DNA of 20,473 bases, from the NCBI RefSeq assembly GCF_003334315.1, contig NZ_QOWR01000068.1, one strand, 5' to 3'. The DNA is from Escherichia coli. GTDB taxonomy: Bacteria > Pseudomonadota > Gammaproteobacteria > Enterobacterales > Enterobacteriaceae. Below the pieces are notes generated by a model. It was not told where the DNA came from. It saw nothing but the letters and a program-made list of their open reading frames with translations, and searched no databases. The position numbers were made by a program, and so were the translations under genes. Positions 3,363-9,677 of this stretch are shown in pieces; position 1 is the first letter of the stretch, and every line of letters starts with the position of its first letter.

Positions 3363-3893
3363 ATGAAATACAATAACATTATTTTCCTCGGTTTATGTCT
3401 GGGGTTAACCACCTATTCTGCTTTATCCGCAGATAGCGTTATTAAAATTAGCGGGCGCGTCCTCGATTATGGCTGCACAGTCTCATCGGATTCGCTTAAT
3501 TTTACCGTAGATCTCCAAAAAAACAGTGCCAGACAATTTCCAACGACCGGTAGCACAAGTCCAGCCGTCCCTTTTCAGATTACGTTAAGTGAATGCAGCA
3601 AAGGGACAACGGGGGTTCGGGTTGCATTTAACGGTATTGAGGATGCAGAAAATAATACTTTGTTGAAACTGGATGAAGGAAGCAATACGGCCTCCGGTTT
3701 GGGTATAGAAATATTGGACGCAAATATGCGTCCGGTGAAACTGAATGATCTTCATGCCGGGATGCAGTGGATCCCACTGGTACCAGAACAGAACAATATT
3801 TTGCCTTACTCCGCTCGTCTGAAGTCAACTCAGAAGTCCGTCAATCCGGGACTGGTGAGGGCTTCGGCAACCTTTACCCTTGAATTTCAATAA
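3363..3893 (+). CDS. ydeS: fimbrial minor subunit (FimF-like), 176 aa
   Basis: Signal peptide MKYNNIIFLGLCLGLTTYSALSA, conserved Cys pair, pilin-like C-terminal strand; AAGGAA 7 nt upstream; 13-bp gap after the usher fragment. Confidence 0.85.
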   Translation: MKYNNIIFLGLCLGLTTYSALSADSVIKISGRVLDYGCTVSSDSLNFTVDLQKNSARQFPTTGSTSPAVPFQITLSECSKGTTGVRVAFNGIEDAENNTLLKLDEGSNTASGLGIEILDANMRPVKLNDLHAGMQWIPLVPEQNNILPYSARLKSTQKSVNPGLVRASATFTLEFQ

Positions 3894-3905
3894 TCAGAGT
3901 CAGAT

Positions 3906-4409
3906 ATGAAAAGACTTCACAAGAGGTTCCTGTTAGCTACGTTTTGCGCGTTATTCACAGCAACTCTCCAGGCCGCCGATGTCACTATCACTGTTAATGG
4001 TCGGGTAGTCGCTAAACCCTGCACTATTCAAACCAAAGAAGCTAACGTTAATCTCGGGGATCTTTATACGCGCAATCTGCAACAACCTGGTTCTGCATCT
4101 GGCTGGCACAATATTACTTTGTCATTAACCGATTGTCCGGTTGAAACAAGTGCAGTGACGGCAATCGTGACAGGTTCAACTGACAATACGGGTTATTACA
4201 AAAATGAAGGTACTGCCGAAAATATTCAGATAGAGCTGAGGGATGACCAGGATGCTGCGTTAAAAAATGGCGATAGCAAAACGGTTATTGTTGATGAGAT
4301 CACTCATAATGCACAGTTTCCACTTAAGGCAAGAGCTATCACGGTGAATGGAAACGCAAGCCAGGGAACGATCGAGGCGCTAATCAATGTGATCTACACC
4401 TGGCAATAA
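3906..4409 (+). CDS. ydeR: fimbrial minor subunit (FimG-like), 167 aa
   Basis: Signal peptide [23 protein letters not shown], pilin-like fold signature, tightly spaced after ydeS. Confidence 0.85.
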
Positions 4410-4467
4410 CGTCGATTCGATTTTCTTAGCCTTCTTTTTAAATCAATTTTTAACCTTAGGATATATC

Positions 4468-5382
4468 ATGGGTAAAACAATCAGTATAAAGGTCCTGTTC
4501 GGTATTTATCTTCTATTAATGGCAGGCAAAGTTTTTGCCTTCAGTTGTAATGTCGATGGCGGGTCAAGTATTGGAGCAGGTACAACCTCTGTTTATGTTA
4601 ATCTCGACCCTGTAATACAGCCGGGCCAGAATCTGGTTGTAGACTTGTCTCAGCATATAAGTTGCTGGAATGATTACGGCGGCTGGTACGACACTGATCA
4701 TATAAACCTGGTACAAGGCTCAGCTTTCGCAGGCTCCCTACAGTCATATAAAGGATCGCTGTACTGGAATAATGTGACCTACCCCTTCCCGTTGACGACA
4801 AATACCAACGTATTGGATATTGGTGATAAGACACCGATGCCATTACCGTTAAAACTCTATATTACCCCAGTTGGGGCGGCCGGTGGAGTTGTCATAAAAG
4901 CGGGGGAAGTCATTGCCCGTATTCATATGTATAAAATTGCAACATTAGGAAGCGGAAATCCGCGTAATTTTACGTGGAATATTATTTCAAATAACAATGT
5001 TGTTATGCCAACAGGCGGCTGCACCGTTGATAGTCGTAATGTCACCGTGGATCTCCCGGACTTTCCTGGAAGCGCAGAAATACCCCTTGGCGTATATTGC
5101 TCAAGCGAACAAAAGCTCTCATTTTATCTTTCGGGTGCCACCACTGACAGTAGCCGACAAGTGTTTGCTAACACAGCACCTGATGCAACAAAAGCATCGG
5201 GAGTGGGTGTCACTCTAATGCGTAATGGAAAAATACTGGCTACGGGAGAAAATGTCTCCCTGGGGACAGTAAATAAAAGCAAAGTACCTCTGGGTTTAAG
5301 CGCAACCTATGGACAAACAGGAAACAAGGTTTCAGCCGGAACCGTCCAGTCAGTCATTGGTGTCACTTTTATCTATGAATAA
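4468..5382 (+). CDS. ydeQ: FimH-like fimbrial tip adhesin, 304 aa
   Basis: Clear FimH-like similarity along the whole length (e.g. [46 protein letters not shown]); signal peptide; AGGA upstream. Confidence 0.88.
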
Positions 5383-5454
5383 TTGTGATTTTGACCTTAG
5401 TCTATGCGCTCCATTCACGAAAATTGCGCGGATAATTATTTTGTGAAGGCTATT

Positions 5455-5472
5455 AGCCTACACCTGTAAGAA
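5455..5472 (+). promoter_or_regulatory. EvgA-box-like dyad upstream of ydeP
   Basis: AGCCTACA-CC-TGTAAGAA against the 18-bp EvgA consensus TTCYTACA-N2-TGTARGAA as I recall it (right half perfect, left half 6/8). Confidence 0.6.
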
Positions 5473-5564
5473 AATCCGCGCACAATTGAAGCCAGAGTCT
5501 TATTTTTTATATTGAAAAATATGTTAATTTAAACACTATGAGAGATGATGCTTAACTTATCGTA

Positions 5565-5596
5565 TTTAATCTATTGTTTAACGATAATAGATTAAA
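5565..5596 (+). promoter_or_regulatory. perfect 11-bp inverted repeat with 10-bp spacer (candidate operator) upstream of ydeP
   Basis: TTTAATCTATT-gtttaacgat-AATAGATTAAA, about 120 bp upstream of the ydeP ATG. Confidence 0.35.
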
Positions 5597-5715
5597 AATA
5601 GAAAGAGAGTAGTCCCCTACTCTTATATATCCATGTTGGCGATAATCCCTTTGTATGTACTGTGCATCATCGCTATTACAAATCCTAATAATTCATTTCC
5701 ACACAGGATAAGTAG

Positions 5716-7995
5716 ATGAAGAAAAAAATTGAATCCTACCAGGGTGCTGCAGGTGGTTGGGGTGCTGTTAAATCCGTAGCGAATGCAGTACGTAAGCAGA
5801 TGGATATACGCCAGGATGTTATTGCCATGTTTGACATGAATAAGCCAGAGGGCTTTGACTGTCCGGGTTGTGCATGGCCAGATCCTAAGCACAGTGCGTC
5901 ATTCGACATTTGTGAAAACGGCGCAAAAGCAATCGCCTGGGAAGTCACGGATAAGCAGGTAAACGCCTCTTTCTTTGCTGAGAATACGGTTCAATCATTA
6001 CTTACCTGGGGAGACCACGAGCTTGAGGCTGCGGGGCGACTCACTCAGCCTTTGAAATATGATGCCGTCAGCGACTGTTACAAGCCATTAAGCTGGCAAC
6101 AAGCTTTCGACGAAATTGGCGCACGCCTTCAAAGCTATAGTGATCCCAATCAGGTTGAATTCTATACTTCGGGCCGCACTTCCAATGAAGCTGCCTTTCT
6201 TTATCAGCTTTTTGCCCGTGAATACGGGAGCAATAACTTTCCCGACTGCTCCAACATGTGCCATGAACCGACAAGCGTGGGTTTGGCAGCGAGTATCGGT
6301 GTAGGTAAAGGGACCGTGTTGCTGGAAGACTTTGAGAAGTGCGATTTAGTCATTTGCATTGGGCATAACCCTGGTACAAACCACCCTCGCATGCTGACTT
6401 CGTTGCGCGCTTTAGTGAAACGGGGAGCGAAAATGATCGCCATCAATCCTCTACAGGAACGTGGCCTGGAGCGATTTACCGCACCGCAAAACCCGTTTGA
6501 AATGCTGACGAACTCTGAGACTCAGTTGGCCAGTGCCTACTATAACGTGCGCATTGGTGGCGATATGGCGTTGCTCAAGGGGATGATGCGCCTGTTAATT
6601 GAGCGCGATGATGCTGCAAGCGCCGCAGGTCGGCCTTCATTGCTTGATGACGAGTTTATTCAAACGCATACCGTCGGCTTTGACGAGCTACGCCGTGACG
6701 TTCTCAATTCCGAGTGGAAAGATATCGAACGTATTTCTGGACTAAGTCAGACACAAATCGCCGAACTGGCTGACGCATATGCCGCTGCCGAACGCACCAT
6801 TATCTGTTACGGAATGGGGATCACTCAGCACGAACATGGTACCCAGAACGTACAGCAACTGGTCAATCTGCTGTTGATGAAAGGTAACATTGGCAAGCCT
6901 GGTGCGGGTATCTGCCCACTACGTGGACACTCTAATGTACAGGGCGACCGAACCGTCGGTATCACCGAGAAACCGTCTGCAGAGTTTCTGGCTCGTCTGG
7001 GTGAGCGCTATGGCTTCACCCCACCTCATGCACCTGGACATGCTGCAATTGCCAGCATGCAAGCAATATGTACGGGGCAGGCTCGAGCATTGATCTGCAT
7101 GGGGGGCAATTTTGCGCTGGCAATGCCAGATCGGGAAGCGAGCGCTGTACCGTTAACGCAATTAGATTTGGCGGTACACGTAGCCACTAAGCTTAACCGC
7201 TCTCATCTGTTGACCGCACGGCATAGCTATATTCTGCCGGTCCTGGGACGTAGCGAGATTGACATGCAAAAAAACGGTGCGCAGGCGGTAACCGTTGAGG
7301 ATTCAATGTCGATGATTCATGCCTCGCGTGGCGTGTTAAAACCCGCCGGTGTAATGCTGAAATCAGAGTGTGCAGTGGTCGCGGGAATCGCGCAGGCAGC
7401 ACTACCCCAGAGCGTGGTAGCCTGGGAGTATCTGGTGGAAGATTATGATCGCATTCGCAATGACATTGAAGCTGTGCTGCCAGAGTTCGCCGACTATAAC
7501 CAGCGCATCCGTCATCCCGGTGGTTTTCACCTGATAAATGCAGCTGCTGAAAGGCGCTGGATGACGCCGTCAGGTAAGGCTAATTTCATTACCAGCAAAG
7601 GGCTGTTAGAAGATCCCTCTTCAGCGTTTAACAGTAAGCTGGTCATGGCGACAGTACGCAGCCACGATCAGTACAACACGACGATTTATGGTATGGATGA
7701 TCGCTATCGAGGGGTATTCGGTCAACGAGATGTGGTCTTTATGAGTGCTAAACAAGCTAAAATTTGCCGTGTAAAAAACGGCGAAAGAGTTAATCTTATT
7801 GCGCTTACGCCAGACGGTAAGCGCAGCTCACGCCGCATGGATAGATTAAAAGTGGTCATTTACCCTATGGCTGACCGCTCACTGGTGACCTATTTTCCAG
7901 AATCGAATCACATGCTAACACTTGATAACCACGATCCATTAAGTGGCATTCCTGGCTATAAAAGTATTCCGGTTGAATTAGAACCATCAAATTAA
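5716..7995 (+). CDS. ydeP: molybdopterin oxidoreductase, formate-dehydrogenase-like; acid-resistance protein, 759 aa
   Basis: Recognised sequence ([25 protein letters not shown]...); N-terminal Cys cluster CPGCAWPD; AGGA upstream. Confidence 0.9.
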
Positions 7996-8010
7996 TGCCT
8001 CTTCTCATTT

Positions 8011-8037
8011 CTTCTGCTGTCATCCGCACAGCAGAAG
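8011..8037 (+). terminator. stem-loop after ydeP (10-bp perfect stem, no U-tract)
   Basis: CTTCTGCTGT-catccgc-ACAGCAGAAG, 16 bp after the ydeP stop. Confidence 0.4.
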
Positions 8038-8113
8038 AATTCCTCATTGACTATTATTTCGCAATTTGCTCACATGGATTAAATTAAACTACATACTATA
8101 AGATATAAACTTC

Positions 8114-8131
8114 TGCCTACAGCTGTAAGAA
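8114..8131 (+). promoter_or_regulatory. EvgA-box-like dyad upstream of safA-ydeO
   Basis: TGCCTACA-GC-TGTAAGAA; same architecture as the ydeP site. Confidence 0.6.
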
Positions 8132-8242
8132 ACTCCGCTCAGTACTGAAGCACCAGTCCTATTTCCTCTTTTCTCCAGCCTGTTATATTAAGCATACTGA
8201 TTAACGATTTTTAACGTTATCCGCTAAATAAACATATTTGAA

Positions 8243-8440
8243 ATGCATGCGACCACAGTGAAAAACAAAATCACGCAAAGAGACAACTATAAAGAAATCA
8301 TGTCTGCAATTGTGGTTGTCTTATTACTGACACTTACGTTGATAGCCATTTTTTCGGCAATTGATCAGCTGAGTATTTCAGAAATGGGTCGCATTGCAAG
8401 AGATCTTACACATTTCATTATCAATAGTTTGCAAGGCTGA
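8243..8440 (+). CDS. safA: small membrane protein SafA (connector between EvgS/EvgA and PhoQ/PhoP), 65 aa
   Basis: Recognised sequence MHATTVKNKITQRDNYKEIMSAIVVVLLLTLTLIAIF... with a single transmembrane helix. Confidence 0.85.
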   Translation: MHATTVKNKITQRDNYKEIMSAIVVVLLLTLTLIAIFSAIDQLSISEMGRIARDLTHFIINSLQG

Positions 8441-8514
8441 AAACAAACAGCAAATTATAAATATGAAATGTTAAAAAAGTATCGATAAAAACTTTATTGT
8501 TTTAAGGAGATAAA

Positions 8515-9276
8515 ATGTCGCTCGTTTGTTCTGTTATATTTATTCATCATGCCTTCAACGCTAACATTTTAGATAAAGATTACGCCTTCTCTGACGGCGA
8601 GATCCTGATGGTAGATAACGCTGTTCGTACGCATTTTGAACCTTATGAGCGGCATTTTAAAGAGATCGGATTTACTGAAAATACCATTAAAAAATATCTA
8701 CAATGCACTAACATCCAGACAGTGACGGTGCCTGTTCCTGCGAAGTTTTTACGTGCTTCAAATGTACCGACTGGATTGCTTAATGAAATGATTGCTTATC
8801 TCAACTCGGAAGAACGCAATCATCATAATTTTTCAGAACTTTTGCTTTTTTCTTGCCTGTCTATTTTTGCCGCATGCAAAGGTTTCATTACACTATTAAC
8901 TAACGGTGTGCTATCCGTTTCCGGAAAAGTGAGAAATATTGTCAACATGAAGCTGGCGCACCCATGGAAGCTGAAAGATATTTGTGACTGCCTGTACATC
9001 AGTGAAAGCCTGTTGAAGAAAAAACTAAAGCAAGAGCAAACGACATTCTCACAGATTCTATTAGATGCCAGAATGCAGCACGCAAAAAATTTGATACGCG
9101 TAGAAGGTTCAGTCAATAAAATTGCCGAACAATGTGGTTATGCCAGTACATCTTATTTTATTTATGCGTTCCGCAAACATTTCGGCAACAGTCCGAAGAG
9201 AGTTTCTAAGGAGTACCGTTGTCAAAGTCACACGGGTATGAATACGGGCAACACGATGAGTGCTTTAGCTATTTGA
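8515..9276 (+). CDS. ydeO: AraC-family acid-resistance transcriptional regulator, 253 aa
   Basis: Recognised sequence; C-terminal AraC HTH (AEQCGYASTSYFIYAFRKHFGNSPKRV); AAGGAG 7 nt upstream; 74-bp gap after safA suggests an operon. Confidence 0.9.
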   Translation: MSLVCSVIFIHHAFNANILDKDYAFSDGEILMVDNAVRTHFEPYERHFKEIGFTENTIKKYLQCTNIQTVTVPVPAKFLRASNVPTGLLNEMIAYLNSEERNHHNFSELLLFSCLSIFAACKGFITLLTNGVLSVSGKVRNIVNMKLAHPWKLKDICDCLYISESLLKKKLKQEQTTFSQILLDARMQHAKNLIRVEGSVNKIAEQCGYASTSYFIYAFRKHFGNSPKRVSKEYRCQSHTGMNTGNTMSALAI

Positions 9277-9357: not shown

Positions 9358-9677
9358 GGCGATATATTTATTGAAATAAATAAGTGACATCCATCACATA
9401 TTTATGCACTTGCATAACCTGTTGCATGATTATTTATGATCTCAATTCGGCATTTTGTCAGTAAAATGCAATAATTTATTAAATATCAATAAATTAGTTG
9501 TTTATCGGCGAGAAATTACTTAATAGAACAGAAAGTAATGTCAACGCTTTATGGACTGTTATTTCCCTTTTTTTAGCTAAATCTGCTATCTCTTTATGTG
9601 ACTAACTTCACTTACATCCACTTATTTCTCTTCGTAAAATTACTTCGGAATTAAGTACAATAAGAAGAGGAACATTT

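Follow-up and report, generated by a model that had tools for sequence, protein, structure and literature searches.

The window, which comprises the entire 20,473-nucleotide stretch of Escherichia coli DNA analyzed here (contig NZ_QOWR01000068.1 of RefSeq assembly GCF_003334315.1), includes the ydeQ–ydeP–safA–ydeO locus as known from E. coli K-12, where safA is b1500. The ydeP gene begins with an ATG at 5716 and safA with an ATG at 8243. Upstream of each are an 18-bp inverted repeat (dyad) and a set of putative promoter elements, and the two promoter copies, which have the same orientation, are separated by 2.66 kb, with the safA-ydeO copy starting 119 bp past the ydeP stop codon. Their features are as follows:

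5455..5472, + strand: EvgA box of ydeP, the 18-bp inverted repeat AGCCTACA-CC-TGTAAGAA (consensus match, cross-lineage conservation, literature)
5473..5506, + strand: post-dyad block of ydeP, at about −65 to −32 (24/34 identity to 8132-8165)
5522..5530, + strand: extended −10 element of ydeP, consisting of TG (5522-23), T, and TAATTT (5525-30) (conserved in four copies)
5538..5562, + strand: putative ydeP transcription start site (TSS), A5538, with the first ~25 transcribed nt (leader probe, similarity to safA)
8114..8131, + strand: EvgA box of safA-ydeO, TGCCTACA-GC-TGTAAGAA (consensus match, cross-lineage conservation, literature)
8132..8165, + strand: post-dyad block of safA, paralogous to 5473-5506 (alignment)
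8181..8189, + strand: extended −10 element of safA, consisting of TG (8181-82), T, and TATATT (8184-89) (same register as ydeP, conserved in lineage L006)
8196..8222, + strand: putative safA TSS at ~8196-8197 and early transcribed region (register of the alignment with ydeP)

The ydeP dyad, AGCCTACACCTGTAAGAA (5455-5472), and the safA dyad, TGCCTACAGCTGTAAGAA (8114-8131), match at 16 of 18 positions and conform to the consensus TTCYTACA-NN-TGTRAGAA at 14/16 and 15/16 positions, respectively; scanning with this consensus also picks up the boxes of frc, yfdX, yegR, and emrK/evgA. The ydeP dyad is kept in eight E. coli lineages and in the divergent Escherichia lineage L006, with variation mostly at position 2 and at the central positions, and the safA dyad is likewise kept across lineages. 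The G common to positions 5456 and 8115 belongs to the K-12-like haplotype; at ydeP position 5456, L006, seven further E. coli lineages, and 53 of the 81 metagenome copies carry a different base (T, except for one C), and the dyad then reads ATCCTACA.

EvgA is reported to activate both ydeP and safA-ydeO directly and to bind inverted repeats of this type, and safA expression is likewise reported to depend on EvgA; for yfdX and yfdW, EvgA binding to repeats of this kind is described in a secondary source. According to the part of PMC3720670 that cites Masuda & Church (2003), an 18-bp inverted repeat is situated upstream of ydeP, b1500/safA, yegR, emrK-evgA, yfdX, and yfdW/frc. The dyads at 5455-5472 and 8114-8131 are the EvgA boxes already published for ydeP and safA (b1500), with direct contact taken from secondary statements and inference. 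Both the boxes and EvgA-dependent acid induction are established, and to this extent our finding largely re-derives known biology.

Extent and specificity of the similarity

The first-pass annotation of this DNA had matched 5456-5506 to 8115-8165 at about 40 of 51 positions, and our alignment reproduced this figure (40/51 identical, ungapped). Its view that the likeness continues past the 18-bp dyads also stood, but the end that it set, at 5506/8165, did not: the similarity runs on to 5562/8222 and covers ~107 bp (5455-5562 versus 8114-8222; 73/108 identical, one 1-nt gap), within which the longest exact run between copies is 10 bp. On the 5′ side of the dyads, the similarity stops abruptly (9/35 positions match upstream), an edge that would fit either a duplication boundary or the decay of unconstrained DNA.

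When the whole intergenic regions are compared, the local alignment score is 50, against 19.4 ± 2.5 (maximum, 31) for 1,000 dinucleotide shuffles (z ~12). If the dyads are used to set the register, 24 of the next 34 bp are identical (binomial P = 5e-8), as are 52 of 84 bp (P = 2e-11). When 34-mers were drawn in random pairs from the intergenic DNA of this window and of other EvgA loci, they matched at a mean of 9.3 ± 2.7 positions, and only ~1e-5 of such pairs equal the observed value, these probably being the true pair resampled (both regions are in the pool). A chance likeness between stretches of AT-rich promoter DNA next to two genuine EvgA boxes could appeal to the low G+C content of the intergenic DNA (36.5%) and to nothing else. 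Because shuffles, binomial probabilities, and random pairs agree, this null is excluded, and the extended similarity exceeds what AT-rich DNA would give, as the annotation had supposed; with the same paralog similarity also present in L006, we assign chance a vanishingly small probability.

The similarity is particular to this pair. With the dyad excluded, the ydeP and safA flanks align at z = 8.9, compared with z ≤ 4.1 for the 20 remaining pairings among EvgA-box promoter flanks, or z ≤ 2.9 once emrK-evgA (which have one box in common) is set aside. The flanks of the EvgA boxes at frc, yfdX, yegR, emrK, and evgA, five in all, lack similarity of the ydeP/safA kind, for which reason a generic EvgA-promoter architecture was rejected as its cause. 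Two marginal resemblances, one between the ydeP and yegR flanks (the 12-mer ATTTAAACACTA; p = 0.037) and the other between safA and emrK in register (p = 0.017), are lost after correction for 21 comparisons. Like other promoters of the EvgA regulon, those of ydeP and safA have dyads that fit the consensus upstream of reported direct EvgA targets, but these two alone also have in common the linker, extended −10 element, start, and early transcript.

In BLAST searches, the sequence was located at a median of one place in each E. coli genome. Of 152 full-length matches in metagenomes, 81 are of the ydeP type and 71 of the safA type (one of the latter with a 1-nt deletion); the two types lie ~2.66 kb apart whenever both occur on one stretch. 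No third copy was found in the E. coli genomes by BLAST or among the 152 metagenome matches. A dispersed repeat or mobile element was rejected given that neither the E. coli genomes nor the metagenomes hold more than two copies or any copy at an unrelated locus. For 5300-8600, neither strand gave a match to an Rfam covariance model at E ≤ 1.

Core promoter and linker

Both copies possess an extended −10 element, with TG one base upstream of a hexamer that has T1, A2, and T6. The form TGY-TAWWTT is present in all four copies from K-12 and L006, reading TGT-TAATTT (ydeP) and TGT-TATATT (safA) in K-12 and TGC-TAATTT and TGC-TATATT, respectively, in L006. The interval between the dyad and the −10 element contains no indels in 18 aligned sequences, and its length is identical in all. 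A published probe for the ydeP 5′ leader starts at −178 from the ATG (a coordinate given without a stated basis), which corresponds to 5538 (5716 − 178), 8 nt past the −10 hexamer; a putative ydeP start at A5538, read from the probe, would fit the extended −10, for which a start 6 to 8 nt past the hexamer is expected. Relative to this presumed start, the dyad spans about −83 to −66, with its center at approximately −74.5. By its register with ydeP, the safA start would fall at ~8196-8197. In its supplementary tables, the GadEWX study gives expression values, and neither the ydeP nor the safA start site is listed there.

A simple −35/−10 scanner favors another pair at ydeP, TTGAAG-16-TATATT (5486-5513), which was rejected as the common promoter, its −10 not being conserved in safA or in L006. 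The corresponding scan of the safA intergenic region returned no canonical promoter, as would be expected of a promoter that depends on an activator and lacks a good −35. Class I activator-dependent sigma-70 promoters with extended −10 elements have comparable layouts, with CRP sites, for example, at −72.5. The ydeP and safA promoters resemble them in having an activator site about seven helical turns upstream, a poor −35, a TGn extended −10, and strict spacing; they differ in that the −74.5 center depends on a presumed start and that contact with the alpha subunit's C-terminal domain is putative here. From this arrangement, we infer a class-I-like activation position.

The annotation had also seen in the ~30 bp downstream of each dyad a second conserved element, perhaps the core promoter or another factor site. 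The former applies only to the 3′ end of the post-dyad block, the sole part that reaches the weak −35 position; the actual core is the extended −10 farther downstream, which the paralogs also have in common. As for the latter, neither of the searches described below, for EvgA half-sites and for RcsB boxes, supported a discrete site. The block does contain islands that do not vary between the paralogs or between the two lineages (T5475, CGC at 5477-79, CA at 5481-82, GTC at 5497-99, and TATTT at 5501-05).

RcsB is, like EvgA, a response regulator of the NarL/FixJ family, and the RcsB/RcsAB box has the 14-bp consensus TNRGA-N4-TCYNA. BvgA is the Bordetella homologue of EvgA. A possible but doubtful reading, which is compatible with duplication, is that the post-dyad block is conserved as a discrete binding region for a further protein, be it low-affinity cooperative EvgA dimers, RcsB, or an EvgA-RcsB complex. 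Such a region would accord with the invariant islands (T.CGC.CA, GTC, and TATTT) and with reports that RcsB is necessary alongside EvgA for the acid induction of ydeP and also for the regulation of safA; a heterodimer of EvgA and RcsB is a published speculation. There is also a precedent in fhaB of Bordetella pertussis, where BvgA uses a high-affinity inverted repeat and adjacent low-affinity sites that bear little likeness to the consensus and continue down to the −35. The ydeP and safA modules share with fhaB a NarL-family regulator, a far-upstream repeat (−88.5 in fhaB, ~−74.5 here), the lack of a good −35, and conservation of the DNA from the repeat to the −35; unlike fhaB, they contain no recognizable secondary half-sites, and the ~30 bp between dyad and −35 would fit one extra dimer rather than two.

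Several results tell against a second-factor region. With an EvgA half-site matrix made from four other boxes, the best secondary half-site in the post-dyad block scores 2.9 to 3.5 bits (P about 0.5 versus shuffles). Known BvgA secondary sites are likewise poor matches to their consensus, and weak half-sites may thus escape a search by sequence. None of the four copies has an RcsB box that matches the consensus at 7/8 or more positions with the canonical 4-bp (or a 5-bp) spacing. The nearest candidate, a 13-bp TAAGAAA(A/C)TCCGC that overlaps the right half of the dyad, reaches 7/8 of an RcsB-type box when a spacer shorter by one base is allowed. Thus, the modules resemble RcsB-dependent promoters in the reported need for RcsB and in a TAAGA...TCC-type sequence adjoining the dyad, but the candidate differs from a true box in its 3-bp spacer, its overlap with the EvgA half-site, and its weakening in the ydeP copy of L006; by this sequence test, membership among RcsB/RcsAB boxes was rejected. 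Moreover, some natural ydeP haplotypes have TAACG in place of TGAAG, the block is missing from all five other EvgA-box flanks, and positions shared by the paralogs are only weakly enriched among those invariant in orthologs (odds ratio of about 2, p = 0.12 to 0.17, dyad and pattern-forced positions excluded). Signs that the linker may have a sequence-specific function beyond spacing are weak. When the module was inspected by eye for a PhoP box and a YdeO box (an ATTTCA inverted repeat), nothing beyond single poor half-sites was seen.

That the 30-bp linker could dock a second regulator layer, whether an EvgA dimer that binds cooperatively with low affinity or a complex of EvgA with RcsB, we regard as unlikely. 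If true, such docking would explain why both promoters need RcsB as well as EvgA, and the duplicated module would be a two-input composite element instead of a simple EvgA site.

Origin of the two copies

Both copies are present in L006. Between K-12 and L006, the modules differ by 13% and 22%, versus 24 to 50% for the flanking intergenic DNA; a megablast search of complete E. coli genomes with the L006 promoter gave no match. The two copies are real and pair specific, their spacing is strictly kept, and conservation is higher within the module than in the DNA around it. In Edwardsiella, whose YdeP has 84 to 85% amino acid identity, the region upstream of ydeP is unrelated and the dyad is absent; therefore, the promoter was acquired within Escherichia. 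The contig scan for ydeP was nonexhaustive, in that the E. coli species representative is itself missing from the matches, and ydeP may thus also occur in Escherichia species beyond those matched.

The segments are very probably paralogous copies of one complete, ~107-bp EvgA-dependent sigma-70 promoter. An independent origin of the two, by convergence on the same proteins and spacing and with no duplication, would be suggested by the response of both promoters to the same regulators and by the coincidence of variable sites in the two copies, which shows a common map of constraint (seven sites differ between K-12 and L006 in both, with 3.1 expected; P = 0.0125) and also accords with duplication. 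Convergence does not predict, however, that the paralogs match at 23 of 43 strain-variable positions (53%, versus about 27% by chance; P = 2e-4), and this agreement therefore points to common descent; added to this are the continuity of the similarity over ~107 bp, including ~25 transcribed bases, and its absence from other EvgA-dependent promoters, leaving convergence improbable. Still less probable is that ongoing gene conversion between the copies, 2.66 kb apart in direct orientation, keeps or renews their likeness. Two of the seven cochanged sites show the same change between K-12 and L006 (C to T at 5492/8151 and T to C at 5524/8183), and the K-12-like G5456 brings the ydeP dyad closer to that of safA; yet, these two concerted sites are the only ones, and one of them varies within E. 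coli as well. The copies share no long identical tract (10 bp at most), and in every lineage orthologues (78 to 87% identical) are far closer than the paralogs within a genome (58 to 68%). The overall pattern of similarity points to common descent of the two promoters. The annotation's idea of a copied regulatory cassette that places both units under the same response regulator is sustained by the pair-specific flanks, the EvgA inverted repeats, the EvgA literature, and this signature of descent.

Under promoter duplication, four parts make up each copy: the EvgA inverted repeat of 18 bp, which spans about −83 to −66; a fixed 49-bp linker without a good −35; 3′ of the linker, an extended −10 (TGn plus TAATTT or TATATT); and a putative start together with the ~25 bases transcribed first. 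When the pH is mildly acidic, EvgS would phosphorylate EvgA, and an EvgA dimer on the dyad would recruit or activate RNA polymerase at the weak core promoter, such that the ydeP and safA-ydeO units would be switched on together.

The promoter paralogy is a modest addition to the known regulation. To our knowledge, the primary EvgA papers set aside, the whole-promoter paralogy of ydeP and safA has not been highlighted in the literature. It would mean that the effector ydeP and the head of the acid-resistance cascade EvgA > YdeO > GadE came under EvgA control through the copying of an entire promoter, rather than by de novo evolution of a binding site, after ydeP had reached Escherichia. The locus would then offer a clean natural case of regulon growth through promoter duplication, and its map of invariant islands versus free positions may guide mutagenesis of what EvgA- and RcsB-dependent promoters need beyond the dyad.

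Two copies of one promoter

The window, read as the reverse complement of MG1655, carries the K-12 region ydeT-ydeS-ydeR-ydeQ-ydeP-safA-ydeO-ydeN..., with 100% identity over 5383-8260 to K-12 derivatives (e.g., BW25113 and MC4100). Of the two segments paired by the first-pass annotation, 5456-5506 falls between ydeQ and ydeP, and 8115-8165 between ydeP and safA.

Genes and promoter copies in the window
5455-5562: promoter copy upstream of ydeP (dyad 5455-5472, linker 5473-5506)
5716-7995: ydeP
8114-8222: promoter copy upstream of safA-ydeO (dyad 8114-8131, linker 8132-8165)
8243-8440: safA
8515-9276: ydeO

The segments are identical at 40 of 51 ungapped positions, and their 18-bp dyads at 16/18. 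Local alignment of both entire intergenic regions scores 50, against 19.4 ± 2.5 (maximum, 31) in 1,000 shuffles preserving dinucleotides. The fair test of an extended similarity fixes the register by the dyads: here, 24/34 positions following the dyad are identical (binomial P = 5e-8), as are 52/84 over a longer span (P = 2e-11), and random intergenic 34-mer pairs from the window and other EvgA loci share 9.3 ± 2.7 matches on average. The resemblance is therefore better than expected for AT-rich promoter DNA; the observation is right, and its statistics are strong. The copied cassette proposed at first pass holds, but its length of ~50 bp does not: similarity reaches from the dyads to 5562/8222 (73/108 under softer scoring, with one 1-nt gap), making the whole promoter of ~107 bp the copied unit. 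Within this unit, TGTTAATTT (5522-5530) and TGTTATATT (8181-8189) stand equally far from their dyads, to the nucleotide; upstream of the dyads, similarity ends at once (9/35).

A scan with the consensus TTCYTACA-NN-TGTRAGAA finds both dyads and, in the fetched K-12 loci, equivalent dyads before frc (yfdW), yfdX, and yegR and between emrK and evgA. EvgA-bound inverted repeats have been published for these genes (Masuda and Church 2003, as cited in PMC3720670), ydeP is reported to be under direct EvgA regulation (PMC7174508), and safA-ydeO to be transcribed from an EvgS/EvgA-regulated promoter (see also PMC11210196). What had been called EvgA-box-like dyads are therefore known EvgA boxes, and the placement of both transcription units under one response regulator is supported. 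H-NS reportedly binds both promoter regions, safA is under negative feedback from PhoP and YdeO, and ydeP is under indirect negative feedback from YdeO; inspection of the modules by eye for PhoP and YdeO boxes showed just poor single half-site matches.

The left half of the ydeP box in the window (AGCCTACA) carries G at 5456, an allele that belongs to the K-12-like haplotype. It is missing from seven further E. coli lineages, the locus of a divergent Escherichia lineage (L006), and 53/81 metagenome copies, which have T (C in one), giving ATCCTACA. With an EvgA half-site matrix, the ATCCTACA form scores 10.6 bits versus 5.8 for the K-12 form, and G5456 may weaken the K-12 box.

Several complete genomes have the locus split by insertion sequences (window 5622-5626, 5681-5689, and 8409-8417; loci L183, L185, and L184): IS5 in strain RR1 and IS903B in EC-129 occupy the ydeP 5′ leader, between promoter and ATG, and IS1A in SCPM-O-B-7615 occupies the 3′ end of safA. 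ISApl1, IS1203, and another IS1 are also listed for the ydeP/safA region. One contig (JARKOR010000108.1) is K-12-identical across ydeP-safA yet binned in a “Candidatus Nanosynbacter” MAG, of which it is almost certainly a contaminant.

Specificity and descent of the pair

Flank similarity could be a general trait of EvgA promoters. Six EvgA boxes supplied seven promoter flanks, which we compared in fixed register, oriented to the regulated gene: the ydeP-safA pair shares 24/34 and 36/73 post-dyad positions, and the remaining pairs share 6-16/34 and 15-27/73. In dyad-free local alignment, ydeP-safA stands at z = 8.9. Next come emrK-evgA at z = 4.1, which are both sides of one box, then safA-emrK at 2.9, in register, and ydeP-yegR at 2.5; neither safA-emrK nor ydeP-yegR is significant after correction for 21 comparisons. 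Across these seven flanks, the similarity is specific to ydeP-safA. In these two marginal pairs, safA and emrK both carry AGTCCT at dyad offset +24 to +29 (AGTCTT in ydeP) and align in register down to the -10 (P = 0.017; emrK side of the emrK-evgA locus, 3514-3531 flank, versus window 8155-8193); ydeP and yegR have in common a 12-mer, ATTTAAACACTA, plus GAGAG near the -10 and start, at a 5-bp offset (P = 0.037; window 5527-5544).

Nor do the modules belong to a repeat family. In BLAST, the median number of places per E. coli genome is one, and a metagenome search for the invariant dyad plus the adjoining T(Y)CGC.CA island matched 120 stretches, whose 152 full-length matches are just 81 ydeP-type and 71 safA-type copies (a single safA-type copy has a 1-nt deletion), spaced ~2.66 kb apart wherever one stretch carries both types. 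A 92.6-kb plasmid (NZ_CP147132.1, 29818-29878) carries 61 bp identical to window 5510-5570, which holds the -10, the start, and the beginning of the leader of ydeP; six plasmid places in total match this region.

Among species-representative genomes, a YdeP scan (window 5716-7995) recovered two E. coli-like loci, then loci in Edwardsiella (L007, L008, and L010; 84 to 85% amino acid identity) and in Yersinia rohdei (67%), followed by distant homologues; that no other Escherichia, Salmonella, or Citrobacter was returned suggests horizontal transfer of ydeP, the scan not being exhaustive. The region upstream of Edwardsiella ydeP is short and unrelated and has no dyad. L006 retains the synteny hipA ... 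ydeP-safA-ydeO ... yddA at 84% DNA identity (YdeP, 96%; SafA, about 60%) without the fimbrial ydeS, ydeR, and ydeQ or the ydeN-ydeM sulfatase pair (window 3446-5344 and 9401-12545), and it has both promoter modules. These differ from K-12 at 14/108 (ydeP) and 24/109 (safA) positions; upstream of the dyads, the differences are 29/72 and 52/118, and in the leaders 37/153 and 10/20. Dyad and -10 are separated without indel in 18/18 aligned sequences. In every lineage, orthologues (78 to 87% identical) are much closer than paralogs (58 to 68%), which places the duplication before the split of the E. coli lineages and L006, with largely independent evolution of the copies.

Under common ancestry, the copies should agree even where change is tolerated, which convergence on protein-binding sites would not predict. 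Among positions that the metagenome search pattern leaves unforced, the paralogs agree at 23/43 haplotype-variable ones (53% versus ~27% expected; P = 2e-4). Seven sites differ between K-12 and L006 in both copies at once, versus 3.1 expected (P = 0.0125), and the copies therefore share one pattern of constraint and freedom. The change itself is identical at just two of the seven sites, and gene conversion need not be invoked.

Promoter anatomy and the linker

Positions invariant in both paralogs across nine lineages per promoter (eight E. coli and L006), in ydeP coordinates
Dyad cores: CCTAC and TGTAAGAAA
Linker island: T5475, CGC 5477-79, CA 5481-82
Linker island: GTC 5497-99, TATTT 5501-05
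-10 region: TG 5522-23, TA 5525-26, TTAA 5529-32
Start region: TGA 5539-41, GAT 5547-49

The resulting TGY-TAWWTT is an extended -10. The TTGAAG-16-TATATT (5486-5513) picked by a simple scanner was rejected, being kept in neither safA nor L006, and the same scanner finds no canonical promoter upstream of safA. A published ydeP leader probe begins 178 nt 5′ of the ATG, at 5538, 8 nt past the hexamer. With 5538 as +1, the dyad would span -83 to -66 (center, -74.5) and the linker -65 to -32, with similarity between the copies running on to about +25; by register, safA would start at ~8196-8197. The most economical model would be a class-I-type, activator-dependent, extended -10 promoter, with phosphorylated EvgA bound at the dyad ~7 helical turns 5′ of the start and making up for the absent -35.

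The putative ydeP start is also the ATG of a 5-codon ORF (ATG AGA GAT GAT GCT TAA; 5538-5555), kept in L006 and not in the safA copy, which may be coincidental. Further into the ydeP leader, an 8-bp stem-loop (5605-5624; -9.4 kcal/mol, z = -4.0) raises a terminator-like flag on the minus strand. Another hairpin (8009-8039; -17.5 kcal/mol, z = -4.5) lies 14 nt past the ydeP stop; L006 keeps its stem (5293-5325) with a replaced loop, TCATCCGCA versus TACGGATGA, a near-inversion. As this hairpin has no U-tract after it and no terminator turned up in the scan, ydeP transcription may read through into safA-ydeO.

The first-pass annotation had also taken conservation of the ~30 bp downstream of each dyad to suggest a second conserved element, perhaps a core promoter or a site for another factor. 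Low-affinity BvgA dimer sites beside a primary repeat offer a precedent for such sites, RcsB is a candidate because the induction of ydeP and the regulation of safA reportedly both depend on it, and there has been speculation about an EvgA-RcsB heterodimer. A matrix from four other EvgA boxes finds no secondary half-sites in the linker above chance (P about 0.5), and the module has no RcsB box with canonical spacing; an RcsB-type variant one base short, TAAGAAA(A/C)TCCGC, overlaps the right half of the dyad. The TGAAG island is changed in natural ydeP haplotypes. In a small sample, positions that the paralogs share are over-represented among those invariant between orthologues (P = 0.002 with the dyad, 0.03 without); a larger sample limited to unforced positions gives only P = 0.12 to 0.17. 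No discrete factor site was found in the linker, whose conservation is thus that of a promoter under constraint; a separate element within it is a hypothesis that we consider rather improbable.

Nothing here points to an unusual mechanism. That ydeP and safA have EvgA boxes and are controlled by EvgA is already known; the paralogy of the two promoters, of which we found no mention in the accessible literature, adds modestly to the evolutionary picture.
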